Positions 7,023 to 31,432 of a DNA stretch of 64,000 bases are shown piece after piece. The stretch is from Planctomycetota bacterium (lineage in GTDB: Bacteria; Planctomycetota; Planctomycetia; Pirellulales; Pirellulaceae): NCBI GenBank assembly GCA_014381825.1, contig JACNKX010000113.1:6159-70158 (forward strand), in the 5' to 3' direction. The position numbers and the translations under genes are program-made. Positions within the stretch are counted from its first letter, which is position 1. Each line of letters opens with the position of its first letter. A model generated the notes under the pieces. The model was not told the DNA's origin, ran no database searches, and was given only the letters and a program-made list of their open reading frames with translations.

Positions 7023-7973
7023 TTAATCGAGTTCGTCTATTAGACGATTCCACAACTCGCGTTCATGACGGGGCTCAACAAGAGGGAGCAGCCGACGGCA
7101 ACATCGCTCAAGCTTGGCATAGAACTGTTGATCTTGTTCAGCTCGTTGCAACATCACACGCAATTCGCTTGCATCGCCAACTTCGAAATAACCAGGATAG
7201 TCGTCACCGAGCAAACCGATCGATCCAGAAATTCGTGATGCAATGATTGGTGTGCCAGCTGCGACCGCTTCGGAGACAACATTAGCACCGCCTTCGAGTC
7301 GCGAACTCAACACCAACAAGCGCGCCCGAGCGAGTCTTCGCTTCGTCTGCGACGGAGACAACTCGCCGATCCATTGATAACGTGAGTTGCGATCCATCTC
7401 GTCACGCGCCCGCTGGGCCATCGATTTGCTGAGTGCAGCGCCGATGTGTACGATGCGGATGCGAGACGACTCAGGCAAACCTCTCGCCGCAATCGCCGTT
7501 CGAAACGGATCTTTCACTGGTCGCAAGTGCCCTACAACCGCGATCTCAAACACGGAACTCAATGGAGTCGGTGGCTTGGACAATCCGGTCGCGGATTGTT
7601 GAATGACTCGAGCCTTCGCTTGAAGCGGCTTTGGCAACGCAATCACACCTGCTGGCTGCAACAATACCAGACGGTCGGCCAGTTCAAGAGACTGCTGAGC
7701 CACACGGCTCGTCTTGATGTCACGATAGAGGTCCGTCCCCGTTAACGTGAGAAGCAGCGGGGCCTCCGAGCGCGCCTCGTGAAATCGGCGGACGGATTGC
7801 GCGCTACGCCTGGCGTGCAGAGCGATCATCAAATCGCACGGTTGCTGAACGAAGGACTCCGCCAAGGCAACTCGATGTCCCAAGTCGCGCAGCAAACTGG
7901 CCCACCGTAGCGCGGTGATGCGGTTGCCCTTGCGAGATCGCGGTGGCGCGGGAGTAACAATCAGAATCCGCAT
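7023..7973 (-). CDS. GT-B fold glycosyltransferase (GT4-like; N-terminus resembles the TIGR04348/SenB-type family)
   Basis: 316-aa ORF with ATG start. 'MRILIVTPAPPRSRKGNRITALRWASLLRDLGH' and the C-terminal 'EGGANVVSEAVAAGTPIIAS' are typical of retaining GT4-like enzymes. The family assignment is from memory only. Confidence 0.65.
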   Translation of the reverse strand: MRILIVTPAPPRSRKGNRITALRWASLLRDLGHRVALAESFVQQPCDLMIALHARRSAQSVRRFHEARSEAPLLLTLTGTDLYRDIKTSRVAQQSLELADRLVLLQPAGVIALPKPLQAKARVIQQSATGLSKPPTPLSSVFEIAVVGHLRPVKDPFRTAIAARGLPESSRIRIVHIGAALSKSMAQRARDEMDRNSRYQWIGELSPSQTKRRLARARLLVLSSRLEGGANVVSEAVAAGTPIIASRISGSIGLLGDDYPGYFEVGDASELRVMLQRAEQDQQFYAKLERCCRRLLPLVEPRHERELWNRLIDELD

Positions 7974-7984
7974 GCACTCGCTTT

Positions 7985-9427
7985 TTAGCCAAACAGCTCG
8001 AGAACTGGCTTGCCTCCGTCGACAATCGGAACGGGACGGCGCTGCGCGTCAATGATGCGGGCTTCCGGATCGATGCCGAGCGCGTGATAGATCGTCGCGG
8101 CAAGGTCTTCGGGCGAGACTGGATTGCTGACCGCGTAAGCCGCATCCTTGTCGGTCTCGCCATAAATCATGCCACCACGGATTCCCGCGCCGGCCAGAAC
8201 AGCCGGAAACAGCGTACTCCAGTGATTGCGTCCCCACTTTGCGTTCGCCTTGGGCGTTCGGCCCATCTCGCCCATCGCAACGACCAGCGTCTCGTCGAGC
8301 AAGCCGCGATCATCAAGATCAACAAGCAACGAGGACAGCGCTTGATCTAACCCAGGCAGCAAGTGCTTCTGGACATCGTCGCTATGCTGATGCGAATCCC
8401 AACTGTAACCATCGACACAATCGTAATGCACAGTCACGAAGCGAGCGCCCGCTTCGACCAGTCGCCGCGCGACCAGCGTCGATTGTCCAAACAAATTGCG
8501 ACCGTATTGATCGCGAAGTTTGCCAGGTTCCTTGCGGATGTCAAAAGCGTTGCGAGTCTTTTCAGACGTAACCAGCTCCAGTGCCTGCTGTCTGAATTTG
8601 TCGTACGCCTGAACAGAACCATACTCTTCAGCCAAACGACGCTGGTCATCAAGCTGTTGCAACAACGACTTGCGTTGGTCGAGCCGGTCGAGCGTCACGT
8701 CCGCTCGCGCCTCAAGTCCCTGAATTTGATAATTCAACTCGTCGTCGGCACAATCTCGCCAGTACGGGTTATCTTTTGCATCCTTCTTATCAATGCGAGT
8801 GTTGAGCGGATCGAAAGCCCGGCCAAGCCAACCTGCCGTCTCTCCAGGGCGTCGGAGTTGGACTCGGTAGTCTTGCAGTCGACCAAGAAAGTTCGGAACG
8901 ACAACGTAGGGCGACATCTCCCGCGTCGAGTCGTTGGGAACTTGCTGCGAGAAGTGCTTGACGACTGATCCCATCGCGGGCCAATCGTTCGGTGTCACAT
9001 TAAATCCGCCACCGATCGGAATCTGCCAGCGATGTCCCGTCTGGATATAATGCCCGCCACCACTGTGATCGTTGAAGTCATGCGTCATTGTCTTGATGAC
9101 CGCAAACTTGTCTGAGACTGCGGCGCACCGCGAAAGAGGTTCGCTGATCAAGAGGCCCGGCGTTCGACACGCGACTGGTTTGAACGGCCCTCGAATTTCT
9201 TCGGGCGCGTCGGGCTTCATATCAAACGTCTCAAGCTGACTCGGCCCGCCAAAGCAGAACAGAAAGATCACTGACTTTGCGCGGGCATTTCGAAACGGCA
9301 GCTCTTCTTCCGCTTGCAACAACTTTGGCACGGACAACCCGAGAAGCCCTGCGCCTCCAGCCTGAAGAACCTGTCGGCGAGTCGTCCCGTCGCAAACGCG
9401 AGCTGGTCTTCCTAGTACATTCAGCAC
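7985..9427 (-). CDS. DUF1501 domain protein (sulfatase-fold) with Tat-type signal
   Basis: 480-aa ORF with GTG start. It has a 'TRRQVLQAGGAGLLGL' twin-arginine leader and 'FGGPSQLETFDMKPDAP', typical of planctomycete DUF1501 proteins. Confidence 0.85.
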   Translation of the reverse strand: MLNVLGRPARVCDGTTRRQVLQAGGAGLLGLSVPKLLQAEEELPFRNARAKSVIFLFCFGGPSQLETFDMKPDAPEEIRGPFKPVACRTPGLLISEPLSRCAAVSDKFAVIKTMTHDFNDHSGGGHYIQTGHRWQIPIGGGFNVTPNDWPAMGSVVKHFSQQVPNDSTREMSPYVVVPNFLGRLQDYRVQLRRPGETAGWLGRAFDPLNTRIDKKDAKDNPYWRDCADDELNYQIQGLEARADVTLDRLDQRKSLLQQLDDQRRLAEEYGSVQAYDKFRQQALELVTSEKTRNAFDIRKEPGKLRDQYGRNLFGQSTLVARRLVEAGARFVTVHYDCVDGYSWDSHQHSDDVQKHLLPGLDQALSSLLVDLDDRGLLDETLVVAMGEMGRTPKANAKWGRNHWSTLFPAVLAGAGIRGGMIYGETDKDAAYAVSNPVSPEDLAATIYHALGIDPEARIIDAQRRPVPIVDGGKPVLELFG

Positions 9428-14103: not shown

Positions 14104-14134
14104 CCGCTGCTCGCTCGTCAAGGAATTGTGGCCG

Positions 14135-15583
14135 ATGTTTTATCGATTGATCGACAATGTTCGCTGTCCCTTCGTCTTCGCATGCCTATGCTTGATTGGG
14201 GGTGGACTTCAGGCTGCTACCGGCGCCAACAGCAAGCAACCCAATATCATCTTTTTGATCGCCGATGATCTTGGTTATGGCGAATTGGGCTGCCAGGGAA
14301 ACGCCGAAATCCCGACGCCGCACATCGACTCGATCGCCACGAACGGAACTCGTTTCACGCAAGGCTATGTCACGGCGCCGAATTGCAGCCCGTCGCGAGC
14401 GGGTTTCCTGACCGGACGCATCCCAACTCGATTTGGTTACGAGTTCAATCCGATCGGTGCTCGAAACGAAGATCCGGGAACAGGGTTGCCGAAAGCAGAA
14501 ACGACGATCGCCGAGTTGCTGCACGAACAGGGGTATACGACCGGCTTAATCGGTAAGTGGCATCTTGGCGGTGCCGCCGACTATCATCCCCATCGTCACG
14601 GCTTCGATGAATTCTTTGGCTTTATGCACGAGGGACACTACTTCGTGCCACCTCCTTATCGTGGCGTAACGACAATGTTACGGCGGCGAACGCTTCCCGG
14701 CGGCGGCCAAGGGCGGTGGTTAAGTGACCGGCTGATCTATACGACTCACATGGGTGGCAACGAACCCGATTACGACGCGAATAATCCAATCGTTCGCAGT
14801 GGGCAACCTGTTGTCGAGAACGAATACTTGACCGACGCTTTCACTCGCGAAGCCGTTGACTTTGTTGATCGACATGCCGACAAGCCCTTCTTTCTGTATC
14901 TCGCGTACAACGCCGTGCACAGTCCCCTCCAAGGCGCAGACAAGTACATGGATCGGTTTTCGCACATCGAAGACATCCACCGACGAATCTTTGCCGCGAT
15001 GCTTGCCAATCTCGACGATAGCGTCGGTGCAGTACTCGCCAAAGTCCACGAGAAGCAACTCGAAGAGAATACACTCATCTTCTTCATGAGCGACAACGGC
15101 GGACCGACTCGCGAACTGACGTCAAGTAATCTTCCCCTTCGTGGCGAGAAGGGAACGATGTATGAAGGTGGATTGCGAGTGCCGTTTATGGTTCAGTGGA
15201 AAGGAAAGGTCCCCGCCGGGAAAGTCTTCGACAAGCCTGTTGTTTCCGTCGATATGTTTGCAACCGCAGCACAACTTTCCGGTGCGAAGATACCGCAGAA
15301 TCTTGACGGCATAGATCTCATGCCCTATTTGACCGGCAAGCAATCCGACATTCCTCACGAGACTTTTTACTGGCGTCAGGGGGCGAAGATGGCATTGCGG
15401 CACGGCGATTGGAAGCTCGTAAATATGCAACGCAATCGCAGCCGACCGAAGTGGGAACTTTATAACATCGCGAACGATCTTAGTGAGAACAATGACCGAG
15501 CCGGAGAGAAGCCTGCAATGCTCAAGGAATTGCAAAACATATGGCGTCGCATGAATAATGAAATGAAAGAACCACTTTTCTAA
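14135..15583 (+). CDS. Arylsulfatase (formylglycine-dependent)
   Basis: 'NCSPSRAGFLTGR' CxPxR motif and 'FLIADDLGYG' are present, plus a signal-like N-terminus. The ATG at 14135 is preferred to the TTG at 14126. Confidence 0.9.
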   Translation: MFYRLIDNVRCPFVFACLCLIGGGLQAATGANSKQPNIIFLIADDLGYGELGCQGNAEIPTPHIDSIATNGTRFTQGYVTAPNCSPSRAGFLTGRIPTRFGYEFNPIGARNEDPGTGLPKAETTIAELLHEQGYTTGLIGKWHLGGAADYHPHRHGFDEFFGFMHEGHYFVPPPYRGVTTMLRRRTLPGGGQGRWLSDRLIYTTHMGGNEPDYDANNPIVRSGQPVVENEYLTDAFTREAVDFVDRHADKPFFLYLAYNAVHSPLQGADKYMDRFSHIEDIHRRIFAAMLANLDDSVGAVLAKVHEKQLEENTLIFFMSDNGGPTRELTSSNLPLRGEKGTMYEGGLRVPFMVQWKGKVPAGKVFDKPVVSVDMFATAAQLSGAKIPQNLDGIDLMPYLTGKQSDIPHETFYWRQGAKMALRHGDWKLVNMQRNRSRPKWELYNIANDLSENNDRAGEKPAMLKELQNIWRRMNNEMKEPLF

Positions 15584-16732
15584 TTAGTCGTCGGTAAGCG
15601 ACTCGTATGCGATGTTAAACACTTCCGGGGCGTAATACGTTCGAGGCTGGGCACCCGGTAATTCTTGCAGTATTCCAGCTGAAGCGAGTCGCTCCAAATC
15701 CGACTTCGCAGTCGGGTAAGTGACGCTAAGTTTCTTGGCAAGATCTGCGACTTGTACAAATGGCGAATGAAATATCGATTCGACGATCTGATTCAACCGC
15801 ACGTTACCCCCAACTTTCACAAGCCGCGCGCTAAAATCCTCTCGGATCGCCAACATTCTCTCACATCGCTCGATGGTCTCTTTCGCCTGCGTGATCGTTG
15901 CATTAAGACAAAACTCAACCCATGCCGACCAATTAGCGTGCGTGCTGACGTGGAAGAGATGTTGAACATACTCATCGCGGTAGCGATCGAAGTACTCGCT
16001 CAAGTACAGCCAAGGCTTCGACATTTCACAGCGTTGTTGAAGCATGAGCGCGAGTAAGAGTCGACCGACGCGTCCATTCCCATCGTTGAATGGATGAATC
16101 GTCTCGAACTGATAGTGAACCAAGAAGCACTCCACTAATGCGTCAAACTTCGGTTCAGCTTGATGGAAATACTTCTCTAACGCGTCGAGACAAGTCATCA
16201 CTTGCTCTGGCGGGGGCGGAACAAACCGACGCGTCGAACCAATCGCAACTTGGATCTTCCTAAATTCGCCCGGAGCGCGATCCTTCCCCCGAACGCCCCT
16301 CAACAGTATCTCGTGCATTTCCTTCAGGAGCCGCAGAGACAACGGAAGGCTACTTTGCGTCCCATGATGAAAGGCGAGGCGATAATTGAACACTTCACGT
16401 TGATCGTTGGCAGGATCACCTTCCGAGAGAGACTCGCGTGGAGCCAGTTCGAACAGTAAGAGTTCCTTTGGCGTGGCGTAGGTACCTTCCAGGCTTGACG
16501 AACGAATTGCTTCGCGATCTTCCAGTGGTCGCAGCAGGATCCCAGGGTTTGGCAAATTACGCCCCAGTCCCTCGAGGATTCCAATTTGATGCTTAGCTTC
16601 TGCCAGCAGCGGCCACAGCCCATTGGGGAACTCCCAGTCGGGCGGAAGCTGATCCGGAACAAATGCGTGCTCATCGCCCATGATAGGGATGATACGTCCA
16701 GGTCTTGCCTCAGCAAATTGCTCGACTTTCAT
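15584..16732 (-). CDS. Fic family protein (AMPylase-type) with C-terminal wHTH
   Basis: The 'HPFNDGNGRVGRLL' Fic motif is present. An N-terminal 'SSSLEG' matches the (S/T)xxxE(G/N) inhibitory helix. The C-terminal 'LSVTYPTAKSDLERLASAGIL' is wHTH-like. Confidence 0.85.
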   Translation of the reverse strand: MKVEQFAEARPGRIIPIMGDEHAFVPDQLPPDWEFPNGLWPLLAEAKHQIGILEGLGRNLPNPGILLRPLEDREAIRSSSLEGTYATPKELLLFELAPRESLSEGDPANDQREVFNYRLAFHHGTQSSLPLSLRLLKEMHEILLRGVRGKDRAPGEFRKIQVAIGSTRRFVPPPPEQVMTCLDALEKYFHQAEPKFDALVECFLVHYQFETIHPFNDGNGRVGRLLLALMLQQRCEMSKPWLYLSEYFDRYRDEYVQHLFHVSTHANWSAWVEFCLNATITQAKETIERCERMLAIREDFSARLVKVGGNVRLNQIVESIFHSPFVQVADLAKKLSVTYPTAKSDLERLASAGILQELPGAQPRTYYAPEVFNIAYESLTDD

Positions 16733-16795
16733 TGGGACATGCTCTTGCGGCTCACGAATCGGACCGTGACAAGATTTTAACGACTTTTCTAGTGA

Positions 16796-16821
16796 TTAAA
16801 ATATATGGCTATATATTTTAA
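16796..16821. promoter_or_regulatory. AT-rich perfect 11-bp inverted repeat upstream of fic (candidate operator/promoter)
   Basis: TTAAAATATAT-ggct-ATATATTTTAA lies 64 bp upstream of the fic ATG. A direct repeat 'TGATTAAAATA' occurs at 16793 and 16832. This is a local AT-rich island in a GC-richer genome. Confidence 0.45.
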
Positions 16822-17001
16822 TGCTATTTCGTTGATTAAAATAGCTCCTAACGTGTTGTAGTTACACATGTTAACAACGATACTTAGCGACTTTTCCGGG
16901 GAAAGAGTGGGCTGGCATTGCTAGGACCAGTGACTGGCATCGTCCGCCTGTCCCAGTTAATTTGACAAAATTCGATTCCGATCATCGCCGAGAACAAGCA
17001 G

Positions 17002-18507
17002 ATGTTGAGCCCCCACGAAACACGAATAGTCCAGTTACAAGCCCGTCGACTCAATTGGACGGGCCAGCTCGTTTGCACCCTGACAATTGCTTTCTCGCTC
17101 GCCAACGCAACACCGTCGCTGGCTGAAATTGATAGCGACCTATATCCAAACATTGTCGTTATCATGGCGGACGATATGGGATTCGGCGATCCTGGTTGCA
17201 ACAATTCCGAATCAAAGATCGAGACCCCGAATATCAACCGGATTGCAAACGAAGGGTTGCGATTCACCGACGCGCATTCGCCAGCTTCGTGGTGTACGCC
17301 AACACGTTACGGTTTATTGACCGGTCGGTATCCGTTTCGAACATCGCTCGGCTGGCGCCATCGCCCAGTGATCGAAGAGAATCGACTCACGTTGCCCGCG
17401 ATGCTGTCCGCACATGGTTATCGCACGGCGATGGTCGGAAAATGGCATCTCGGATTCACGGTCGAGGATCTGGCCGAGGTGCATCAAGGCGGGCCGGTCG
17501 ATCGAGGATTTTCGAGTTGGTTTGGCATTCCCGCGTCACTCGACATTCCGCCATACTACTACATCGAAGGCAAGCGTGCCGTTGCGCCTCCGACCGATTC
17601 GATTGGCGACATGAACACCAAAGGCTGGAGCCCGATTCAAGGCGAGTTCTGGCGGGCAGGTGGATTGGCACCTGGCTTCAAACACGTTGATGTTCTGCCG
17701 ACACTGACCGCGCGTGCCGAGAAGGAGATTCTGGCTCATGGCAAGTCGAACGCGGACAAACCATTGTTCCTTTATCTCGCGTTGCCAGCGCCACACACAC
17801 CGTGGGTGCCTACGAAGGAATTCGCTGGGCGTAGCAAAGTGCCACTTTACGGCGACTTTGTCATGCAGGTCGACGCGACAGTCGGTCGAGTCCTCGCGGC
17901 ACTCGATGAAGCGAAGATGACCGAAGATACGCTGGTTGTCTTCACATCAGACAACGGCCCGGTGTGGTACGAGGAAGATGAAGTTAAGTACGGCCATCGC
18001 GCGACGAGCATCTATCGCGGGATGAAGGGCGACGCATGGGAAGGCGGTCATCGCATGCCGTTCGTCGTGCGCTGGCCAGCTCGCATCAACGCTGGTCGCG
18101 TCACCAATCAACTCGCTTGCCACACCGACTTGTTTTCTACGTGTGCATCCATCGTGGGGCATGACCTCCCCGAAGATGCCGCCGAAGACAGTATTGATCT
18201 ATCGGGCGTACTCACAGGAGAGGCAGATGAATCCAAACGTTTGCGTGAAACACTGATCGTCAATTCGACGGGAGCTTTTCTGACGGTGCGCAGCGGCTCG
18301 TGGAAGCTGATCCCATTTCGCGGTTCGGGTGGCTTCAGCAAGCCGAGGGTCATCCGCGACGTTCCGCGAGGTGAACCCAAGGGCCAGCTCTACGACCTCG
18401 CCGCTGACCCAGCAGAAACGAAGAACTTGTACGACGAGCATCCGGAGATCGTTAAGGAACTCACGACGCTGACTAACGAATCTCGGAAGTCAGGACGTAC
18501 GAGATAG
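17002..18507 (+). CDS. Arylsulfatase
   Basis: 'WCTPTRYGLLTGR' CxPxR motif and 'IMADDMGFGD' are present in a 501-aa ORF. Confidence 0.9.
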   Translation: MLSPHETRIVQLQARRLNWTGQLVCTLTIAFSLANATPSLAEIDSDLYPNIVVIMADDMGFGDPGCNNSESKIETPNINRIANEGLRFTDAHSPASWCTPTRYGLLTGRYPFRTSLGWRHRPVIEENRLTLPAMLSAHGYRTAMVGKWHLGFTVEDLAEVHQGGPVDRGFSSWFGIPASLDIPPYYYIEGKRAVAPPTDSIGDMNTKGWSPIQGEFWRAGGLAPGFKHVDVLPTLTARAEKEILAHGKSNADKPLFLYLALPAPHTPWVPTKEFAGRSKVPLYGDFVMQVDATVGRVLAALDEAKMTEDTLVVFTSDNGPVWYEEDEVKYGHRATSIYRGMKGDAWEGGHRMPFVVRWPARINAGRVTNQLACHTDLFSTCASIVGHDLPEDAAEDSIDLSGVLTGEADESKRLRETLIVNSTGAFLTVRSGSWKLIPFRGSGGFSKPRVIRDVPRGEPKGQLYDLAADPAETKNLYDEHPEIVKELTTLTNESRKSGRTR

Positions 18508-19949: not shown

Positions 19950-22900
19950 ATGGCAGATCTCAGCATCCTCGCGCGTCGATGCGCGAAGAGAAGTCGGCGC
20001 AGGCAAAACACAAGGCGACGAAAATTCGGCAATGCGATAGGTCTCCGCCTAGAGTTACTCGAGAGCCGACAGCTTCTGGCAGTTCTCGGAGATCCGATCG
20101 TCGACAGCGATCCAACGAGCGATGACAGCATCACGCTCTTGCAATCTCCCATTGAGGCTGATGAAGGAGGCACTGCCGCAGAGTCAGACTACGAAGGGGC
20201 TGACTATTCGTACTCGACGGATATGGCGACAGAATCTGGAATCGTCGCTGAAACTCTAAGTTATCAGGACGACGTGCCCGCTGGTCTGGAAGGTTCGGCG
20301 GCAGAGGATGCAGCGGCGTACTTTGATACGCTGCGAGAGTATTACGACGAGGCAACCGTTACGTTCGGCGTCGATGATGACACGGATTGGAGCGAAGTTG
20401 CGCTGGCGCTCGACGAACAAGCCACTGATATTGAGATGCCCGACGATGACTCGTTCATTGTGTTTAACTCGTTGGCGACGATTGATGATAGCTCGCTTGG
20501 GACGGATCTAAATGCGTTGGGGGATTCTTCGTGGGCCTTTGGCGACGATCCGTTGTCAACCATCGCTACGACGGATGCGGTCGACGTCGGCTCGATCGCA
20601 AATTGGGAAATCGTGGATGCGCTTCCCGACTCGCTCGACGCAAGTTCATTGCCAGAAACTCCTGATGACATTTACGTGTCGATACTCGATGGTCCCACAG
20701 AATCCAATGCGGAAAACGAGGAACAGCAAAACACGAGTGCCGGGGTTAGTGAACCTCTTGGGGCGAGTCTTGTATCCGGCGTGTTCGCTAGTCCCCAATA
20801 TGGCGCGACTGGCGGAACTCGCGTGTCGGTCAGTGATACGACGTTCGGCATCCTCGCAGGAATTCAAGATCGTTGGGACGCGGCTCGCAATGGCGATGCA
20901 AGCCAAGACAATGACGAAAGTGATTCACCACTCGCAGCGGATTCGGAAAACAGTGTCGAGCCACAGACCGAACCAAATGGGACGCTCGAATCGAGCGGCG
21001 AGTCGAATCTGGTATCACCCGTTGTACCCGGAGAAGTTGCACCCAGTGAAGTTGCAACTGGAGAATCAGCGGGCGACCCGGCGGAAGGGGAAGGTCCTCC
21101 CGTCGTAACGAACACGACGGGCGAGTTTGCTATCGATGCGCAGAATCTCTCGTTGCCCAAACTGCCCGACTTCAGCGCAACGGACCCACACCTACCTGGA
21201 CTTGCGCATTCTGGAGACCTGACCACATTTCAACCGCCCTCAGGAAACATCCCGCGCACTACGAACACGAGCAACAACACAACCACCACGTCATTCACCG
21301 ACGATCTCGGCGGCAACTGTACAGCGACGATCGACCGCACCACAACCGTCACGCAGGAAGCGTCCGAACTGCCCGCGTGGTATCTCGAAATCCTGCGAAC
21401 GGAATACTTGGTAGTTACTGACTGCGCTTACCCTGACGGAACGGCGCGGACAACCGATCAATCGGGTTCGAGCTTCTATCAGCTTCAGATCTCTGGAGAA
21501 TGGCCTCACATCGATTCGATCTACCTTGAGGACAACACACGCGACGCCTTTGTAGATACGGTGACACAGCGCTGGAGTGGCACGGGCGCGAGCGGCACGG
21601 GCGCGAGTGGCACGGGCGCGAGTGGGGCCGTGAACTCTGGAGCAACGGTCACTCGCCGCGACGGTTGGATCGAGAAAACTTCCCAGTACGACCGCGACTT
21701 CACGCTCGCTGCGGATGGCGTTACGAAGCTGGAATCCTTCTCCAAGTCAAAAGAGATCCGGTTGGATGAGGTCAGCACAGTTGATTCCAATGCCAACTAC
21801 GACCGCTCCGACCCGACGCCTGGAGTCGTCAACTTCGATAAGGGTTACGCGTTCGTCAGCACGCGAGACCACGTCTACTTCTCAACCGGCGAGGCCGAAG
21901 GGCGTGCGTTTGATGGCACGATGACTTATATCAGCCAGCCGATGAGAATGCTCGCGGATGGGACCGGTCATTCAGGTGTGTTTCTGAATGGAGCGGAGTA
22001 CACCGGCGAGACGATTCCTAATGGCACAACCTGGAACGAGTACAACTATTCGATTGTCAATAGCGACGATTACGGCTATGACCGAGGCATCGAGGGCAAA
22101 CGCGCTAACGACGGTAGCGGTTGGAAAGATGTTCCATCCAAGAGTTGGAGCTATCAGAGCAACTCGACCAAGACCGAATTCAAGGTCTGGATCGACGCCG
22201 GGAGCAAGGAAGACATCGCGGGACCTCCTGCGGACATTCACCACGAAGACATCGTTCACTATGAAGTGTGGTCGAAAGACGAGTCGTCGTTGGATACGAA
22301 TCGAGACGTGCTGTACGATGCTTCGGGGGGCGAGACCGTCAGAGGTTCCGGAGGTGCCAGCGGCAACAGCAGCGGCGGAAGCGAAGTTCGGTACGAAGGA
22401 AAGTTTACCTATGATGCCGTTGAAGGTTCGCTAGCGACCGGTGGCGATGGGGCTGACGATCACCAATGGGCCGATTACAAAGTCCACGACATCAACACGT
22501 ACTCGTCGTACTACGGTGTCGGCACAACGACTACGACCAATGGCGCAACCGGCGAGGTCGAGACGGCCGGTGGCGGCAGTGGTGGTAGCTCCATGAACGG
22601 CGACTCCGGCGCTCGCTTCACCGGTGGAGCGACTTACGACTTCGTCGACACGACTGGCAGCAGCACGGAAGTCGCAAACACGTTCGTCAGCTATGCAACG
22701 AATTCGTTCGACAAGTATTCGCGCGACGACACCTACACGATCACGCTCCAAGCCGACGGTGAAGTTGCCACAACGACCCATCCACCACTTGCGAAAACGT
22801 GGGGCGGCAGCAAGTCAGAACTCGACGCATGGGGCAAGTACGCATTCGACGATGTCGTGGGGAAGCTGCCGCTGGGCGATGGCGAAACGACGCACGACCA

Positions 22901-25900
22901 CAGCGGCTACTTCGTCAACGTAGACGACGAATACAACTACGAATTCCGCTTCGACACGCCCGGTACCTTGGCCTCGCTGGGAGTCATTTCCAACACCTAC
23001 AGCCATATCGATGGCAAGGGCGCATCGAACTTCAAGGCATGGGGCACGTACGATTACGACTATCGCAAAGACACCAAAGAGGTCCACGATTTCATTGGCA
23101 TCGATGTCAGCGACGATGCGTCCTATGAGTACGACTTTACGTACGGCGCGCAAGTGAAAGATGACGGCGCGTTGTCGGTCGGTGGTGGCGGCTACGACAA
23201 CTCGAAGGAAGATGGCGAATCAAAGTTCTATGGCTACGGCAGCTACGACGACAGCCTGGAGACGGGCAGCTTCGCGAGCGGCGGTGATGGCAGCCGCTTT
23301 GCTGAAAACCACGGCTACGAGTTTGAGTTTACCGACGAGTATTTGTACGAGAGTAAGACGAGCGCTCAAGCCAAGACGACCGGCGTGGCAATTGATGAGC
23401 GCGGTGGCTATTTGAATTCAATCACGGAGAAGAGTGAGTCCAGCTACAAAGTCTGGGGGTCTGTCGAAGAAGAGACCAAACAAGACAAGGATAATACCTA
23501 CGCTCGCATCGATTACGAGTCGTGGGGCAAGAGTGAATACAAAGCTAATGACTTTGAGATCGGCACGCCGATTGCGCACGACTTCCTTCAGATCGAGGGG
23601 AAGGGGACCGTCTTTTCTGTCAGCGAAGGCGGCACCAAAATCGATGGCCACGGCCACGCGGACTACTACACCGATCACGGCAGCTACTCCGCCGGGGATG
23701 GTTGGGAGGCCACGTCGAAGAACACCTGGTTGGTCGATGTCGACGACAAGTATTACTTCACCACCAGCTTGAACAACGACCGGAACAACTTCCAGTTCTC
23801 TGGTCCGTACAGCCGTACGACCGGAAACGACTTTGGCAATGTGCAATACGATGCCAAATACGTGTCCCTGACCGACAGCACCTATGACGAGAAACGCGAT
23901 GCGGCTGCCTACGAATCGCACAGCACGACCACTCGCGAAGTGAAAGCGAACGACGAGTATCGGCACTTCTTCGACTTCAATCACTCGATGTACGCGGACA
24001 CGAATAATTTCACAAAGGGCACATCAATGCCCGTTGGCAAAGCTTACGAACGCGCAAGTTCTCAAGGCCACGACAAATCGTTTACGATCTCCGACGGAAA
24101 GGAATACTGGACGACGAACTGGAGTTCCGGCAACAGCTTTGATAACTATACGCACGACTCGACGTGGAACAGCTACAACGATACCGGATCAAGCTACGAT
24201 TCAGAATTCGAAGTCGAAACAACAAAGGCTCCGCTGTCGGGATGGCGAACGAGTAAGTCGCATGACAAGGGGCAGTCGTGGGCGATCGGAGAAAGTAAAT
24301 ACGAAACGAAGGACGATCATATTTATTCATACTACGATCCCTATTACTCTTCCGGTGGTGAAGAGAAACTCCACTCGACGGACGAATCGAAATACCAATA
24401 CGATTCGAAGTACGAAAACAAAAGCGAAACCCAAGCGGATGGCACCGTAACGAACTCGAAAGATTCGTCGACGAGCGATTCGTCCGAACAGACGTACTCG
24501 TGGAACAACACCTACACAAATTGGTATACCGATCCTCTCATGGGCGTGACGACCATGAGTTGGGTCGACGCGGATTCCAATACCTACAGTTACGTGTTCT
24601 CGGACGCGTCCTCAAGCAGCGAGACAATTCCCGGAAGTGGTACTTCAGGTGACAGCAAGGAAGCCGATCTCAAGGACCCATGGCTTGGCCTCTTCCAAGC
24701 CGGCCTTGGATCGCCCGGAAGTTCCTCCGGACGATGGTGGAGTCCTTGGCGCTGGATGTGGACCGGCGATGGCCATGCGTCGGACGAAATGATGAATGTA
24801 TCGCTCGTCGCGGCAGGCAATTCCGTGAAGGACAATCAGGCTCGCAGCGCCCTGAAAGTCATGGCAACGGTCGACCCCACGCCTCTGTCCGGTTGCGTCG
24901 AAGCAACGCTCAGCGGCGTCGAGAACGGAGACAGCGTAACACGCATCGCGGCCAATTGCGCGATCGAAGCCGTTCCGATCCCTGGGTTCGCTGAAGCCAA
25001 GAAAGCAGCCAAAGCGGGGAAGAATTTAGTCAAAGAAGGTGCCCAGAAAGCGACGAAATACTCCGACGAGATCGTGACAAAACTTCGCAAAGGAAAGTCG
25101 ACGGCAAAGATCAACTGCTTTGTTGCGGGTACACCAACCCATGTCGTGCAAGAAGGGCAGTCACATGCAGTTGGCAACGTCGTGATGGCGATCAGCTTTG
25201 GCGTTTTCGTCACAAGCGAGTATGTTGATCGCAAGCGGCGCAAAAAACACGGCCCTTGGTCGCCCCAAGATCTTGACGATTGCGGAATCGGCTCAGCCAT
25301 GGACGAACTCGAACGGGATGACAGCTTCAATGGCATGAGTAGCGACGAACACGACTTGTTCCGCGACACGGTTGATGTGTTATTCGGCGAGTCCTACGAA
25401 CAGGAAGCATTGGAAACAAGCATAGCCACACTCGTTCGACCGTCCCGTTGTCGATCGACCGCACCGTACGACGGATCTCCGAATCCGTCGATCCAGTCCA
25501 GGTTAGCAGTTTCGACGGTCTCGGAGGGCTATCGTACTTTTGCCAGCAGGCCCACAACTCGCTCAGATTCGAAGCCGTCTGACGACATCACGTGGACACG
25601 CACTCTCGGCATCATGGCTCTGTGCGCGGGCCTCCTCTTCGGCTTGTTCTCGATCGTCCCCAGTGGTCGAGGCCCAGCGGTCACGACCAAGCCGATCGAG
25701 CAGGTGCGCGTCGGACAACGGGTGCTGGTCGATGCACCAGAGGAAGCTCTAGCCGCTGACTTCGCGCGGCTGACCAGTACGGCATTGTTCTGGGACCAAG
25801 GTGATGGAAGCTGGAAACTCGAAGCAGACGCCGATCCGCTACGCGAAATCCAACAAGCCACGTCGCAACAAATCACCAAAGCCGATTACCGCCTGGTCAA

Positions 25901-26852
25901 GCTTAAAGCCCATTCCGTTTGGGAAGACGGCACGGTCGACACGATCAACGTCGAGACGCTGCAACCGTGGCAGTGGATTCACCATCACGAAGCCCACATC
26001 GGTGCATTCGCCCCGCTTCCCATTGATGCCCTCGAAATGGGCTTACCCGAAGATCTAACCGGCAAGGTACTCGACATCTTGCCATGTCCGCCGTTGCGAG
26101 CTGGTCCCGGTCGAGTCGTTCTGACAACCGTTAATCACCTGAACAAAGACGTCGTCGAACTAACACTGCGCAATGCGGATGGCGAGACTGAGACACTTCG
26201 TCCAACCGGGACTCACAAGTTCTACAGCGTCACGCACGGCGAGTGGCTCTCCGCGTCGCAGCTTACCAAGGGCGAACACTTAGACGGCATCAACGGCAAA
26301 GTCACGGTCGTCGATCTCCAGCATCTCCCCGGCACCCACCGCGTCTACAACATGTCGGTGCAAGGCGAGCATTTGTATCGCGTCGCCGAATGCGGAGTGT
26401 TGGTGCATAACGAAGGCTGCAGTGACATCGTTTCAGAGAATGGCATCTCCGGTAGCGGAAGGAAGATTGATGTTGCAGCGTCAAAGGGGAAACTTGGTCC
26501 AAGAGGTGGGAGGCATGGTGACATGCCGTCGCCAAGACCGGTTGACGCACAGTCTCACCACCTGATTGCCAACAGAGCAACAAGAGTATCGCGTTCAGAT
26601 GGCGCGGCAGTGTTAATGAGAAAGAAGGACCACGCTCTCACCAGTAGTTACAAGAATGCCAGGGCAGTCGCGCACGAACGCAAAATGCTGGCAGAGGGGC
26701 GTGCCGCTGAGTTATTTGAGCAGAATATCGACGAGATCATGGAAATTGCGAAAAGGCAAACTGATATCCCAAATGACTACTACGATGATGCGATTTTGGA
26801 GGCCTGGGAATACTTTCTAAAACACGGCCCAGAAAAGTATGGAGCCAATTGA
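19950..26852 (+). CDS. Giant secreted polymorphic-toxin-like protein
   Basis: 2300-aa ORF. The N-terminus carries 'LRLELLESRQLLAV', resembling the planctomycete extracellular N-terminal motif. The centre is D/S/T/G/Y-rich and repetitive. Hint motifs are 'CFVAGTP' (nt 25116) and 'HRVYNMSVQGEHLYRV..GVLVHN' (ending nt 26411). The 146-aa tail contains 'QSHHLIANR'. Confidence 0.85.
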   Translation: MADLSILARRCAKRSRRRQNTRRRKFGNAIGLRLELLESRQLLAVLGDPIVDSDPTSDDSITLLQSPIEADEGGTAAESDYEGADYSYSTDMATESGIVAETLSYQDDVPAGLEGSAAEDAAAYFDTLREYYDEATVTFGVDDDTDWSEVALALDEQATDIEMPDDDSFIVFNSLATIDDSSLGTDLNALGDSSWAFGDDPLSTIATTDAVDVGSIANWEIVDALPDSLDASSLPETPDDIYVSILDGPTESNAENEEQQNTSAGVSEPLGASLVSGVFASPQYGATGGTRVSVSDTTFGILAGIQDRWDAARNGDASQDNDESDSPLAADSENSVEPQTEPNGTLESSGESNLVSPVVPGEVAPSEVATGESAGDPAEGEGPPVVTNTTGEFAIDAQNLSLPKLPDFSATDPHLPGLAHSGDLTTFQPPSGNIPRTTNTSNNTTTTSFTDDLGGNCTATIDRTTTVTQEASELPAWYLEILRTEYLVVTDCAYPDGTARTTDQSGSSFYQLQISGEWPHIDSIYLEDNTRDAFVDTVTQRWSGTGASGTGASGTGASGAVNSGATVTRRDGWIEKTSQYDRDFTLAADGVTKLESFSKSKEIRLDEVSTVDSNANYDRSDPTPGVVNFDKGYAFVSTRDHVYFSTGEAEGRAFDGTMTYISQPMRMLADGTGHSGVFLNGAEYTGETIPNGTTWNEYNYSIVNSDDYGYDRGIEGKRANDGSGWKDVPSKSWSYQSNSTKTEFKVWIDAGSKEDIAGPPADIHHEDIVHYEVWSKDESSLDTNRDVLYDASGGETVRGSGGASGNSSGGSEVRYEGKFTYDAVEGSLATGGDGADDHQWADYKVHDINTYSSYYGVGTTTTTNGATGEVETAGGGSGGSSMNGDSGARFTGGATYDFVDTTGSSTEVANTFVSYATNSFDKYSRDDTYTITLQADGEVATTTHPPLAKTWGGSKSELDAWGKYAFDDVVGKLPLGDGETTHDHSGYFVNVDDEYNYEFRFDTPGTLASLGVISNTYSHIDGKGASNFKAWGTYDYDYRKDTKEVHDFIGIDVSDDASYEYDFTYGAQVKDDGALSVGGGGYDNSKEDGESKFYGYGSYDDSLETGSFASGGDGSRFAENHGYEFEFTDEYLYESKTSAQAKTTGVAIDERGGYLNSITEKSESSYKVWGSVEEETKQDKDNTYARIDYESWGKSEYKANDFEIGTPIAHDFLQIEGKGTVFSVSEGGTKIDGHGHADYYTDHGSYSAGDGWEATSKNTWLVDVDDKYYFTTSLNNDRNNFQFSGPYSRTTGNDFGNVQYDAKYVSLTDSTYDEKRDAAAYESHSTTTREVKANDEYRHFFDFNHSMYADTNNFTKGTSMPVGKAYERASSQGHDKSFTISDGKEYWTTNWSSGNSFDNYTHDSTWNSYNDTGSSYDSEFEVETTKAPLSGWRTSKSHDKGQSWAIGESKYETKDDHIYSYYDPYYSSGGEEKLHSTDESKYQYDSKYENKSETQADGTVTNSKDSSTSDSSEQTYSWNNTYTNWYTDPLMGVTTMSWVDADSNTYSYVFSDASSSSETIPGSGTSGDSKEADLKDPWLGLFQAGLGSPGSSSGRWWSPWRWMWTGDGHASDEMMNVSLVAAGNSVKDNQARSALKVMATVDPTPLSGCVEATLSGVENGDSVTRIAANCAIEAVPIPGFAEAKKAAKAGKNLVKEGAQKATKYSDEIVTKLRKGKSTAKINCFVAGTPTHVVQEGQSHAVGNVVMAISFGVFVTSEYVDRKRRKKHGPWSPQDLDDCGIGSAMDELERDDSFNGMSSDEHDLFRDTVDVLFGESYEQEALETSIATLVRPSRCRSTAPYDGSPNPSIQSRLAVSTVSEGYRTFASRPTTRSDSKPSDDITWTRTLGIMALCAGLLFGLFSIVPSGRGPAVTTKPIEQVRVGQRVLVDAPEEALAADFARLTSTALFWDQGDGSWKLEADADPLREIQQATSQQITKADYRLVKLKAHSVWEDGTVDTINVETLQPWQWIHHHEAHIGAFAPLPIDALEMGLPEDLTGKVLDILPCPPLRAGPGRVVLTTVNHLNKDVVELTLRNADGETETLRPTGTHKFYSVTHGEWLSASQLTKGEHLDGINGKVTVVDLQHLPGTHRVYNMSVQGEHLYRVAECGVLVHNEGCSDIVSENGISGSGRKIDVAASKGKLGPRGGRHGDMPSPRPVDAQSHHLIANRATRVSRSDGAAVLMRKKDHALTSSYKNARAVAHERKMLAEGRAAELFEQNIDEIMEIAKRQTDIPNDYYDDAILEAWEYFLKHGPEKYGAN
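21579..21623 (+). repeat. 3 x 15-bp in-frame tandem repeat (GTGAS)x3 inside the giant gene
   Basis: ggcacgggcgcgagc / ggcacgggcgcgagt / ggcacgggcgcgagt. Confidence 0.9.
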
Positions 26853-26853
26853 T

Positions 26854-27435
26854 ATGCCTCGCTTAGACGTTCGGCGGTTGCAGCGAAGTTATCCCGACGG
26901 GCAACTTCCGTGGGCGATTAAAAAGCTCTGTGAATATCAAGAGAACTATCAGCATTACGAGTATGCCGGAGAATTCATCCTCGATGAAGGTGCCGTGGAT
27001 TTTTTGGACGATCTTCCCCACAAAGATGCGTTTGCAGGATTTGGAACTGACGCGACAGGTTCAGTGTTTGCTCATTGGTCCGGTAGCATAGAGTCATTGA
27101 CAGCTCAATCGATCGAGCGGTGTCCCATCGTATACTTGGACTCTGAAGCCGTGTTTAGTTCCGTGATTGCCAGTGACTTTGGCGATTTCATCGAGTTGCT
27201 GCTCTTGGCGACTGACGATCTCGGAAATCTAGCGGCCGAGGACGAGGAACTGCGCGCCGAAGAAAGCACCGACCAAGTCACGCACTTTAGGCAATGGGTA
27301 CTCGACACATTTGGCATTTCAGTGCCCACGGAGCCCCGTAATATAGTCCGGAAGGCAAAGTCAGTTCACCAGCACGCATTTATTGACTGGTATCGATTGT
27401 GGCAAGGTGAGAATCCTTGGACTCCTATGGTTTGA
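26854..27435 (+). CDS. Putative cognate immunity protein (SMI1/KNR4, SUKH-like)
   Basis: The ORF starts 1 nt after the toxin stop (TGAtATG), or overlaps it by 14 nt from the ATG at 26839. It is acidic and ~193 aa long. '...GFGTDATGSVFAHW...PIVYLDSE...IASDFGDFIELL' matches the SUKH pattern from memory. Confidence 0.6.
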   Translation: MPRLDVRRLQRSYPDGQLPWAIKKLCEYQENYQHYEYAGEFILDEGAVDFLDDLPHKDAFAGFGTDATGSVFAHWSGSIESLTAQSIERCPIVYLDSEAVFSSVIASDFGDFIELLLLATDDLGNLAAEDEELRAEESTDQVTHFRQWVLDTFGISVPTEPRNIVRKAKSVHQHAFIDWYRLWQGENPWTPMV

Positions 27436-27715
27436 TGCGAGCCGCGCGGGATGCGTGAAAGGGGGGATAAGATCGAATGGCATTATGGATTTCGATAAGG
27501 TGCATGCAAAAGTGAAATGCAACAACTGCATGTCCGTTCATTCAAATCGACGACGTTTCTAAAAAACGCAATTCATTTTCCAGTTTCATTGGTGTTGATT
27601 AGGTCCGATTGGTTGTGCAATAAAACGTAAGATGCCGGCGACGACGGGTGAGAACGATTTCACGGCGGCTCAAGAGGTAGTGGCAGAACTCGAATAAACG
27701 AAGGAGATTAAAACA

Positions 27716-28024
27716 ATGACAGACAATTTAGCTAACCAGAACGATGAAGGCGAAACGGCTGGCGTCGGCGGCAAAGAGGCCTACAACATAGTGAGCGATA
27801 CGGTAACAGGAGCGAATGTCCGCTGGAAAGACAACCTGTTTCAGGCGCTGTCGATCTTGGTCTGTATCCTCTTGGGAGCTGGGATCGGAGCTTTGTCGAT
27901 CGAAGAACGGATTGGCGGAGCGTTAGTTGGTGGATTCGCTGGGATGATCATTGGGGTACTCGGCAGCGGCACTTTCCTGATGGTGTTTCGAGCCATTATG
28001 CACATGCGCGGACGCCATCGTTAA
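27716..28024 (+). CDS. Small two-TM membrane protein, hypothetical
   Basis: AAGGAG lies 8 nt upstream of the ATG. Two hydrophobic helices are rich in small-xxx-small glycine motifs, and the tail is basic. Confidence 0.6.
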   Translation: MTDNLANQNDEGETAGVGGKEAYNIVSDTVTGANVRWKDNLFQALSILVCILLGAGIGALSIEERIGGALVGGFAGMIIGVLGSGTFLMVFRAIMHMRGRHR

Positions 28025-29935: not shown

Positions 29936-31432
29936 CTACTCGTACTTCCATTTGATCGACCACGGATCGTTCGTGCGATCTTGGAAGGCCTTCAACTCCT
30001 TGATCATTTCGGCAAGCAATTCTTTGTGTTGCGAATCGGCGGCGAGATTGTGGCCTTCATGCGGATCGGCCTTTAGGTCGAATAGCTCGAACTTGGGACG
30101 GTGCATGTACGAGTCGACAGTCTTTGCACCGTAAGGAGCATCTGGGCCGATCTTGTATTGGGCTTGCCACGTCGGCGCGGCCCAAAGGTCAGATGCAAAG
30201 GGAAACGAGAGCGGATGAGCGATGTTCCAAATCAGTTTATACTGCCGCTGTCGAACGACTCGCATCGGGTAGTACATCTGAATCTCGTGGAAGGTATGAG
30301 AGGCGTAAACGGTGTCCCAACCTTCGGAATGTTGTTGCTCGAGCGTTGAGAGGATCGAACGACCGTGAAACGTGCCGCGTTTCGTCTTAGGCGTCTGCTG
30401 TGTGCCTCGTTCCGGCTGATCAAGCATCGCAAGAATCGACCGCTTCACAGTTCCGCTCTGTTCGTTCAAGATGCCGGCAAAATCCAGGATCGTCGGCGTG
30501 ATGTCAGTCCAACTGACCATCGCGTTGCTCACGACACCTCGTTTCTTGTTATCAGGATTCCTGACAAGGCATGGCGAGCGCATGCCGCCTTCGTAGACGG
30601 TCGTCTTGGCACCGGGCATCGCGATGCCGTGGTCCGAGATGTAGATGAACAGCGTGTCGTCCCATTTGCCTGCATCGTTCAAGATCTCGATCAAGCGGCC
30701 GAGCCCCTGATCGATTCGCGAGACGGATTGATAGTACTGGGCGATCTCGGCACGACAGGTTGGCGTGTCCGGCAAGAATCCGGGAACGAGGACCTCGGCG
30801 GGATCGTAGATTACTTCTTCGATGCCAGGATATCCCTTCGAATCTGGCTTGGGATTACCAAAGCGATTCGGCTGATGCGGAAGCTCCGTGGCTTCCCCGC
30901 CGCCGCGATGCGGATCAGACGTGCAAAAGTACAGAAAGAACGGCTGATCGCTGTCTGCTGCGATCAATCTTTTGCAGTTGTTCGCCATCTCGACCGGGCT
31001 GCGCGAATTGCCTTTGATGAACTCGTCGAAGGCGTAGACCGATTCCGGCGCGACATGGTACTTGCCGCAACTGGCCGTTCGATAGCCGGCTTTGCTCAAG
31101 TAAACCGGCAGACCAACGATGTTCGTATACGCATTAAACTTGTGGTACGAATGCTGATGGCCATAGTGTCCGTTGGCGTGATTGTGCAGACCGCTAAGGA
31201 TTACAGAACGACTGGCCGAGCAACTGGCTGTCGTACAGAAGGCGTGCGTAAAGCGTGTACCGTCTTTCGCCAATGCATCCATGTTGGGAGTCTGGATGAC
31301 AGAGTTCCCGTAGCACCCCATGTCTTGGCTTTGATCATCGGTCACAAAGAGAACGACGTTGCGCGGGGCTGCATTGACGAGCGATTGAATAAGCCCAATC
31401 AACAGGGCGACGAGTAGCAGGCGACGGCGCAT
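29936..31432 (-). CDS. Sulfatase (N-sulfoglucosamine sulfohydrolase-like)
   Basis: A signal peptide, 'LFVTDDQSQDMGCYG' and a 'CSASRSVILSG' CxAxR motif are present. Confidence 0.85.
   Translation of the reverse strand: MRRRLLLVALLIGLIQSLVNAAPRNVVLFVTDDQSQDMGCYGNSVIQTPNMDALAKDGTRFTHAFCTTASCSASRSVILSGLHNHANGHYGHQHSYHKFNAYTNIVGLPVYLSKAGYRTASCGKYHVAPESVYAFDEFIKGNSRSPVEMANNCKRLIAADSDQPFFLYFCTSDPHRGGGEATELPHQPNRFGNPKPDSKGYPGIEEVIYDPAEVLVPGFLPDTPTCRAEIAQYYQSVSRIDQGLGRLIEILNDAGKWDDTLFIYISDHGIAMPGAKTTVYEGGMRSPCLVRNPDNKKRGVVSNAMVSWTDITPTILDFAGILNEQSGTVKRSILAMLDQPERGTQQTPKTKRGTFHGRSILSTLEQQHSEGWDTVYASHTFHEIQMYYPMRVVRQRQYKLIWNIAHPLSFPFASDLWAAPTWQAQYKIGPDAPYGAKTVDSYMHRPKFELFDLKADPHEGHNLAADSQHKELLAEMIKELKAFQDRTNDPWSIKWKYE

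Follow-up and report, generated by a model that had tools for sequence, protein, structure and literature searches.

The window analysed here is a 64-kb stretch (64,000 nucleotides) of contig JACNKX010000113.1, from a planctomycete of the Pirellulaceae. Its forward strand contains a giant gene encoding a protein of 2300 amino acids (aa), followed directly by a gene for a 193-aa protein, and we interpret the pair as a polymorphic-toxin/immunity locus of a marine Pirellulaceae-type planctomycete. For this reading as a whole, proposed mechanism included, we estimate a probability of about 0.72. That the giant gene encodes a polymorphic toxin with a pre-toxin Hint domain, and that the next gene is its cognate immunity gene, is strongly supported. 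Bacteria compete to a large extent by means of polymorphic toxins, which in Planctomycetes are known from catalogues only; the locus provides a clean, testable toxin-immunity pair from this group.

In the proposed mechanism, the precursor is composed of an Arg-rich N-terminus with an 'LExLExRxLL' motif, a long acidic and non-repetitive stalk, a pre-toxin Hint autoprotease, a linker, and a toxin domain of ~115 aa. After export, the Hint domain would cleave at its terminal Asn2154 (between HN and E), and the linker and toxin would be freed. The toxin would act as a metal-dependent nuclease, most likely a DNase, with a putative active site combining two invariant pairs: His-His 2203/2204, which ends a beta-strand, and Asp-His 2227/2228, with which the following helix begins. 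Such an arrangement would be HNH/His-Me-finger-like, in a fold closest to that of the TseN DNase. In the producer, the 193-aa product of the coupled next gene would bind the toxin and block it. We infer the cleavage, the nuclease activity, the neutralisation, the export route and the role of a membrane segment from the comparisons that follow. The features of the locus, in window positions (nucleotides, nt), are:

19950..26852, forward strand: gene of the polymorphic-toxin precursor, an uninterrupted open reading frame (ORF) of 2300 aa according to the ORF list and translation, its stop codon TGA (26850-26852) lying within the coordinates
20046..20081, forward strand: N-terminal motif RLELLESRQLLA, aa 33-44, a candidate planctomycete export motif preceded by an Arg-rich stretch
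20082..25115, forward strand: central stalk, aa 45-1722, acidic, rich in D/S/T/G/Y, nearly Cys-free and without recognisable domain
25116..25148, forward strand: Hint block A 'CFVAGTPTHVV', aa 1723-1733, with the candidate N-terminal nucleophile Cys1723, kept in alleles L008 and L010
25149..25688, forward strand: insert of ~175-180 aa splitting the Hint domain, without Pfam match, kept in alleles L007, L008 and L010
25689..26411, forward strand: main Hint body, aa 1914-2154, with a second insert, the TxxH block 'PTGTHKFY' and the terminal 'GVLVHN'
26412..26498, forward strand: linker EGCSDIVSENGISGSGRKIDVAASKGKLG, aa 2155-2183, after the predicted Asn cleavage site, the recombination boundary, common to P0002, L007 and L008
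26499..26849, forward strand: C-terminal toxin domain, aa 2184-2300, signature GG...SHH...G.A..M...DH..T.S...Y, with 117 relatives
26854..27435, forward strand: candidate cognate immunity gene, 193 aa, translationally coupled to the toxin gene, with a 1-nt spacer and GGAG 8 nt upstream

A scan of GTDB genomes with a single Hint sequence returned nothing, and a two-sequence Hint alignment returned four loci: L007 and L008, two paralogues within a single Pirellulaceae metagenome-assembled genome (MAG), L009 in another Pirellulaceae MAG, and L010 in a Planctomycetota MAG. A fragment from the nr database, P0002, and a short protein, P0004, were counted as the fifth and sixth alleles. Homologues from the Pirellulaceae/Planctomycetota MAGs are ~68-78% identical to the window protein until ~29 aa beyond 'VLVHN'. 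The L008 protein (at least 1929 aa) is 68% identical to it over aa 402-2183 in one BLASTP high-scoring segment pair, the stalk being conserved from aa 402 onward, and is unrelated beyond; identity per 100 aa drops from 60-81 to 20 past aa 2183. In the closer alleles the linker follows the pattern 'IVSE..GSGRKIDV.A.K', and distant alleles diverge right after VHN. The tails themselves have little in common. That of L007 is a Colicin_D domain (55.7 bits), that of L010 an AHH domain (48.7 bits), the latter followed by an Imm11 gene (39.6 bits), and the tails of L008, L009 and P0002 are unrelated and without Pfam match. Altogether six alleles with differing tails were counted, of which two tails, Colicin_D and AHH, are recognised by Pfam. 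A shared stalk and Hint domain with unrelated tails is the defining behaviour of polymorphic toxins.

An earlier reading of the window, made from the sequence alone and hereafter called the first-pass annotation, had proposed a 2300-aa ORF with a polymorphic-toxin layout and had suggested looking for tail exchange after VHN in related strains. The ORF is confirmed at 19950-26852, and tails are indeed exchanged at the VHN/linker boundary in L008, L007, L010, L009 and P0002. The layout is borne out as well, by a PT-HINT match above threshold, by the tail swapping, by the recurrence of the tail and the next ORF in three independent loci, and by metagenome depth and branching contigs that point to further Hint-tail modules. 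Its delineation of the variable tail (146 aa, nt 26412-26849) needed correction: the C-terminus is variable, but when set against its closest alleles the protein becomes variable only near aa 2184 (nt ~26499), ~29 aa beyond VHN.

The Hint domain was identified by a match to PT-HINT (PF07591) at 37.5 bits, for a gathering score of 27.7, over aa 2057-2155 and profile positions 35-137 only. Its end, '...VYNMSVQGEHLYRV...GVLVHN' / '...VYNMSVQGEHLYRVAECGVLVHN', falls at aa 2154 (nt 26411), so that the Hint domain ending in GVLVHN, already read in the first-pass annotation, stands. The missing N-terminal third of the domain was found upstream, displaced by insertions. The segment 'KPIEQVRVGQRVLV' (aa 1914-1927) resembles the Hint strand that comes next after block A, with ~175-180 residues in between, and a second insert of ~120 aa occupies aa ~1934-2056. 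Once both inserts were deleted in silico, the PT-HINT match spanned profile positions 8/9-137 and rose to 51 bits. On this construct, weak matches to Hom_end_hint and to Hint (PF01079) were also obtained, the former aligning from profile position 1 exactly at Cys1723, the latter from profile position 7. In the allele alignment, the split arrangement is kept in L007, L008 and L010. The catalytic blocks, Cys1723 in 'CFVAGT', 'PTGTH' and 'VLVHN', are all present and conserved in the alleles. Since the TxxH block and the terminal HN are intact, autocleavage at Asn2154 by Asn cyclisation is chemically plausible under established intein/Hint chemistry.

Polymorphic toxins with a pre-toxin HINT domain, of the signal-dependent type II secretion ('T2SS') class, were described by Zhang, Iyer and Aravind (2011) and Zhang et al. 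(2012, PMC3482391); the latter names planctomycetes as carriers of AHH, SHH and further toxin domains, and ascribes toxin release to HINT. The general architecture of the window locus is that of a textbook polymorphic toxin: a large, presumably exported protein with a central stalk, PT-HINT right before a variable toxin domain, an immunity gene directly downstream, tail exchange at a conserved boundary, and probably multiple modules per genome. It differs from the described systems by a stalk in which the known types of repeat (Rhs, FilH, ALF, tail fibre) are all absent, by the lack of a classical signal peptide, by a Hint domain interrupted by an insert with a transmembrane helix, and by a toxin domain belonging to an unannotated family without Pfam model.

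We then consider the downstream gene. As read in the first-pass annotation, the next ORF starts 1 nt past the toxin stop (ATG at 26854, TGA at 26850-26852); another ATG, at 26839, would make the two genes overlap, and public gene calls (P0003) start at 26854. A homologous ORF follows the window's tail subtype in all three loci where this subtype was found with its downstream sequence: the window, L001 and L014. L001 carries a 70%-identical tail fragment, a 3-nt gap, and a 194-aa ORF 43% identical to the window ORF (E 1e-54). In L014, the tail (P0004) is 53% identical and precedes a partial ORF, 49 residues of which are collinear with the N-terminus of the window (E 0.002) and L001 (E 6e-4) proteins. 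Tail subtype and downstream gene are therefore inherited together, and because the ORF accompanies the subtype in all three loci, its putative role as an immunity protein is well supported by context. The tail family, described below, also has a main clade, and there the situation differs: directly after the tails of L012, L013, L015, L016 and L017 come loosely related ORFs of 128-199 aa, without Pfam match and with pairwise E-values of 1e-3 to 2e-11, which form a candidate second immunity family. A different ORF family after main-clade tails is expected if immunity co-evolves with toxin subtype. A distant homologue of the window immunity protein (28% identity, E 5e-10) was nevertheless found in L013, two genes downstream of a main-clade tail.

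The first-pass annotation had taken this ORF for an SMI1/KNR4 (SUKH) protein, and here the profile searches were not supportive. The window protein has no match in Pfam (E<=10), NCBIfam or PDB. Among its homologues, the L001 protein matched SMI1_KNR4 over aa 44-113 (E 0.018, 16.1 bits for a cut-off of 25.4) and SUKH_6 (E 0.027), and the L013 protein matched SMI1_KNR4 over the equivalent stretch (E 0.076, 14.1 bits for the same cut-off of 25.4), all below threshold. An hhalign comparison of the immunity family with a genuine SUKH protein from L011 gave E 0.068 and a probability below 1%, over 'FG.DG.G...(I)V.LD....VA..F..F', the typical SUKH C-terminal pattern. No bridge between the immunity family and SUKH was provided by a weak-SUKH ORF neighbouring in L013. 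Structure did not help either: the single-sequence AlphaFold2 (AF2) model of the protein was unusable, with a predicted local distance difference test (pLDDT) of 47.4, too poor for its Foldseek matches to have meaning. A word-indexed homologue search with the protein found only itself, and scans of JGI metagenomes for the immunity family, with a degenerate peptide pattern and with a DNA pattern for 'PIVYLDSEAV.SSV', found nothing.

That the 193-aa protein is an immunity protein of a family of its own, outside the SUKH superfamily, is accordingly a serious contender, at a little under even odds. The absent or sub-threshold matches speak for it, as do ~70 C-terminal residues, a helical region, that lie outside any SUKH-like part. 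On the other hand, SMI1_KNR4 is the best Pfam match of both homologues, over an equivalent region, and the aligned motif agrees with the SUKH pattern. The protein also resembles SUKH members (PMC3113570) in its position directly downstream of a nuclease-type polymorphic toxin and in the size of its core. Further downstream, a 102-aa ORF (27716-28024) is called in all public contigs with the locus; its only match is a weak one (E 0.009), to DUF2157, a predicted membrane protein.

For the toxin tail, an exhaustive phmmer search of 1.84 billion representatives recovered 117 proteins at E<=1e-3. The tail family thus comprises at least 117 clusters at 50% identity. In nearly all 117 relatives the match extends to within ~30 residues of the C-terminus. 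Pfam scans of 118 member sequences gave no match on the tail region, and upstream of it revealed carriers typical of toxins: PT-HINT in 7, TPS, Fil_haemagg_2 and DUF637 in one CdiA-like protein of 2257 aa, Tox-PAAR-like in one, as well as RHS repeats, TcdB_toxin_midN and TEN_YD-shell. The family's carriers are therefore Hint, Rhs, CdiA-like and PAAR-like proteins, distributed over Firmicutes, Proteobacteria and Planctomycetes. A profile search of a 5.8-billion-protein set yielded only the names 'hypothetical protein', 'RHS repeat-associated' and 'filamentous hemagglutinin', from Neobacillus, Rhizobium, Marivita, Pseudomonas, Inquilinus and Paracoccus. Among the genes close to family members are those for DUF4123, PAAR, TsiV and a DUF87 ATPase, which imply delivery through a type VI secretion system (T6SS), possibly by a type VII-like system (T7SS-like), in other phyla.

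The family signature reads GG-x(~15)-[SV]HHMPA-x(~10)-GPAIxM-xxx-DHxxT[AS]SxG ... KYDxAI. Across a 35-sequence alignment GG, HH, DH and a single Tyr do not vary, and HH and DH are at least 96% conserved in the 118 sequences. The window tail forms a divergent subclade with P0004 (53% identical) and P0001 (70% identical), in which GG, SHH, G, M, DH, T, S and Y are retained. As candidate catalytic residues we regard H2203 and H2204 (nt 26556-26561), within 'SHHLIANR' (aa 2202-2209), and D2227 and H2228 (nt 26628-26633), within 'KDHALT' (aa 2226-2231). One tail copy of this subtype, on the ~1-kb contig of L001 (positions 1-110), appears truncated or frameshifted upstream of 'DGAAVLMRK' and has SRH for SHH, with an intact immunity gene after it; it may be a decayed orphan, a reading set aside here because the evidence amounts to 32 nt at a contig edge.

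Structure prediction was more informative for the tail than for the immunity protein. An AF2 model built on a 78-sequence alignment reached a pLDDT of 90.2 and a predicted template modelling score (pTM) of 0.83, with three strands and ~seven helical elements. According to DSSP, HH ends the strand 32-36, the strand 51-56 comes next, and DH starts the following short helix. A Foldseek search against the PDB gave one meaningful match, 9j9w_B (prob 0.95, TM-score 0.56/0.49, E 0.12). Entry 9J9W is the TseN(H254A)-CT/TsiN complex of Acidovorax citrulli (PMC12574953), and the matched chain is presumably the toxin, because the immunity protein is described with a seven-stranded sheet. TseN, a DNase delivered by the T6SS, was presented in 2025 as a new class of effector. 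Seven helices, one 3-10 helix and a sheet of three strands make up its C-terminal domain, and the H254A mutation abolishes both DNase activity and toxicity (PMC12574953).

The likeness to TseN-TsiN lies in a small domain with a three-stranded sheet and ~seven helices, and TseN is, moreover, a His-dependent DNase neutralised by a downstream immunity protein. The two systems differ in that no sequence similarity is detectable: PDB searches with the tail-family profile and with the single sequence gave chance matches or none, 9J9W being absent at E<=10. TseN is delivered by the T6SS via VgrG, PAAR and a chaperone, rather than by a Hint-bearing giant protein, and TsiN and the window immunity protein are unrelated as far as can be discerned. 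We slightly favour a metal-dependent nuclease, probably a DNase, in which an HNH-like strand-strand-helix core, itself plausible, would be set in a TseN-like fold. The locus points to a widespread toxin domain family without Pfam model or annotation, whose sole structural relative is the TseN DNase. Another candidate identity, one of the novel PT1/PT7 DNases of a 2021-22 systematic toxin screen, was set aside: the spacing of catalytic residues differs, and these toxins are absent from the Foldseek matches.

The tail might instead be a toxin of another biochemical class (RNase, non-nucleolytic hydrolase or nucleotide-modifying enzyme) with a superficially nuclease-like appearance. By sequence it connects to no characterised enzyme, its one structural neighbour is matched with a TM-score of only ~0.5, and sites based on His and Asp occur in many hydrolases. 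We nonetheless think this unlikely: DNase activity and a catalytic His have been demonstrated for that neighbour, the weak structural matches that recur are HNH-containing proteins, and the family has a remote match to the AHH pre-motif.

A more precise proposal, that the tail is a canonical member of Tox-SHH (PF15652) or AHH (PF14412), i.e. of the HNH/EndoVII toxin nucleases, fares worse and appears improbable. Several observations are in its favour. The [SG]HH motif with a later His matches the Tox-SHH signature, and HINT and Imm-SUKH are given as partners of Tox-SHH, planctomycetes included (PMC3482391). As in these families, the model places 'xHH' at a strand end and a later conserved His on a helix, and the predicted strand-strand-helix around HH and DH is compatible. 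By hhalign, the 'GG.hGd..dsHHmPA' stretch of the tail family, with its Gly-rich pre-motif, aligned with 'AGSYGDLGTDAHHIVS' of the L010 AHH tail (E 0.008, over 16 columns), and this sister allele has a true AHH domain at the same position; against the L009 tail, E was 0.07. However, hmmscan at E<=10 found no Pfam match, whether the query was the tail, either of two other members or the family consensus, and none of the 118 members matched an HNH-type toxin model at E<=0.01, while the same Pfam library does detect AHH, Colicin_D, Imm11 and Ntox10 elsewhere in this analysis. The family has its own signature (GG, HHMPA, GPAI.M, DH..T.S.G, KYD.AI), and no HNH protein was significant in the structure searches with the tail model. 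The first-pass annotation, which had described an SHH/AHH-like tail, had thus singled out the right residues, since SHH and DH are invariant in the family and a weak AHH link exists (E 0.008), but the tail matches no Pfam model, those of Tox-SHH and AHH included.

How the nuclease-bearing protein of our preferred reading would leave the cell was examined at its N-terminus, in its stalk and in its neighbourhood. The motif RLELLESRQLLA (aa 33-44) has the form LExLExRxLL, and the only Pfam match in the first 80 aa is a sub-threshold one to Planc_extracel (PF07595; 13.4 bits for a cut-off of 25.5, E 0.064); of the N-terminal export motif claimed at first pass, the presence is thus certain and the profile support falls short. 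Pfam found no TPS, PAAR, LXG/WXG or other trafficking domain in the toxin protein. No RHS repeats, TPS/FHA repeats or PAAR/VgrG-linked domains were found by Pfam in the toxin protein or in 28 other ORFs of the window, consistent with the earlier statement that no T6SS, CdiB or Rhs is visible there. In the stalk, no Pfam or NCBIfam match was found even at E<=10. The long repetitive filament-like centre seen at first pass was not recovered: self-BLASTP at E<=1 returned the identity match alone, and Tandem Repeats Finder reported two short arrays of 15 nt, (TGASG)x3 at 21575-21625 and a 3-copy array at 21021-21065. The stalk is compositionally biased rather than repetitive.

The most unusual element is the first insert of the Hint domain. 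Within it, a moderately hydrophobic segment (aa 1741-1759, nt 25170-25226) comes first, then DRKRRKK and an acidic loop, and last a strong transmembrane helix, predicted at aa 1885-1903 (nt 25602-25658). This helix is the sole strongly hydrophobic 19-mer of the protein, with a Kyte-Doolittle peak of 2.27; with a 19-aa window, aa 1884-1906 alone exceed 1.6. We found no description of a Hint domain split by a transmembrane-helix insert in the literature searched, a search that was limited. A short relative, P0004 (L014:798-2009), complete with 403 aa, is of interest in this respect. It starts with 'MTTRTPKLLGWMLVVGLLVAAWLPSS', a helix that resembles a signal peptide or an anchor and takes the place of the window protein's strong transmembrane helix. 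P0004 has no Hint block A; the helix is followed by the Hint body, then the same tail subtype, then the partial homologue of the window immunity gene. This layout suggests that the helix helps the Hint-toxin module to cross or enter a membrane, be it the producer's or the target's. In L014, the upstream neighbour of the P0004 gene resembles a pentapeptide-repeat protein.

Taken further, the insert, conserved in this planctomycete lineage, could be a built-in membrane-insertion and release device, anchoring or threading the Hint-toxin module through the producer or target membrane, after which Hint self-cleavage would release an uncatalogued TseN-like/HNH-like nuclease without a dedicated type V, VI or VII machine. 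On this view the helix, rather than the stalk, would be the essential trafficking element, as the layout of P0004 suggests. We offer this as speculation with rather long odds. If true, the device would represent a delivery route specific to Planctomycetes. A membrane-split Hint autoprotease could bear on toxin delivery in these bacteria, which are without the usual contact-dependent secretion systems. In prePAAR/Tse6-type T6SS effectors, transmembrane segments adjoin the delivery domain. The likeness is that hydrophobic helices stand near the toxin module, where they could insert in a membrane and aid toxin crossing; unlike in these effectors, the window helix lies inside the Hint fold, and there is no PAAR, Eag chaperone or T6SS.

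Planctomycetes encode many giant surface proteins. That the window protein is simply a Hint-processed cell-surface or adhesin protein, without role in antagonism and next to an unrelated ORF, would agree with this, with a stalk devoid of toxin-delivery domain and with the absence of a secretion system nearby (28 ORFs scanned), and is yet barely credible, in view of alleles that exchange the C-terminal tail only, some of them for recognised toxins with immunity (Colicin_D; AHH with Imm11), of a tail family shared with Rhs, CdiA-like and PAAR-like carriers, and of a downstream ORF that co-varies with the tail.

Several points weigh against the polymorphic-toxin reading with its full mechanism. 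Regarding export, no secretion gene was found among the 28 neighbouring ORFs scanned, the N-terminus has no classical signal peptide, its hydropathy scan being devoid of a hydrophobic core, and the transmembrane segment within the Hint domain complicates both membrane topology and fold assembly. Regarding the toxin, the tail has no sequence match in Pfam, NCBIfam or PDB, and departs from its own family at near-invariant positions (HHMPA to HHLIA, GPAI to GAAV, G to K, A to L, D to E). The structural match to TseN is moderate (E 0.12, root-mean-square deviation 5.1 A over 143 columns, 13% identity), recognised HNH proteins (ScoMcrA, Cas9) recur at the Foldseek noise level only, and a Foldseek search of the tail against BFVD viral structures produced only noise. 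Finally, the tail lies outside the part of the locus covered by metatranscriptome contigs.

Those contigs, at 99% identity or more, span a large part of the giant ORF as well as the immunity gene's 3' end. The locus thus seems to be transcribed in the sea, although DNA can be present in libraries of this kind. A scan for promoters and terminators gave nothing exceeding shuffled expectation.

Sequencing depth in four marine metagenome runs, from three samples, suggested that the Hint module is not alone in its genome. Flanking k-mer depth was ~372-424 in runs X1 and X2, 4.4-4.7 in X4 and 37-38 in X6. Over the Hint region (25269-26537) depth was 2-5 times that of the flanks, reaching 1132 in X1 and 1973 in X2. 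Unitigs break at 25365 and 26295, which is why all public contigs with the immunity gene begin 560-585 nt upstream of it. Contigs of depth equal to that of the flanks leave the locus at three places: at 26383, with the loose end 'GTCGVLVHN', a paralogous Hint end; at 26411, immediately past VHN; and at 26473, just past the linker, with the P0002-like loose end 'GAPNAVVTR'. The ~1:1 depth ratio across samples argues for at least two further modules in the same genome, each composed of a Hint domain with another tail. None was found elsewhere in the 64-kb window; these putative modules are deduced from depth and branching. Contigs from X4 (a DNA run) and X19 (a metatranscriptome) skip 125 nt at 25444-25570, with three mismatches at 25409-25412. 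The source is probably a paralogous Hint copy in which the loop is shorter, not a deletion at the locus; 125 is not a multiple of 3.

GC content drops from 0.578 (25500-26499) to 0.508 and 0.499 over the tail and immunity gene, which fits a mobile cassette; across 26500-28000 (tail, immunity gene and spacer) it stays at 0.50-0.51, compared with 0.55-0.58 in the body of the giant gene. On another metagenome contig (L011:1-5700), we observed an array of short genes, each made of PT-HINT and a tail, with interleaved Imm1, SMI1_KNR4, DUF2019 and unannotated small ORFs. It resembles a classic orphan-cassette or poly-immunity locus, and one of its cassettes carries the window's tail family.

Apart from the toxin and immunity genes, the 28 other window ORFs scanned with Pfam encode sulfatases, DUF1501, Hsp70, Fic, methyltransferases, two-component and chemotaxis proteins, a TonB-dependent receptor and metabolic enzymes. 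A Fic/DOC gene, with Fic_N, Fic and a SoFic-like C-terminal helix-turn-helix, lies on the reverse strand at 15584-16732, ~3 kb upstream of the toxin gene and among sulfatase genes. Four sulfatase genes were found, within 14126-18507 and at 29936-31432 and 46155-47558, together with a DUF1501 gene at 7985-9427 and a GT4 glycosyltransferase gene with a 'GT4-conflict' match at 7023-7973. Such a content in sulfatase, DUF1501 and GT4 genes is typical of marine Pirellulaceae.

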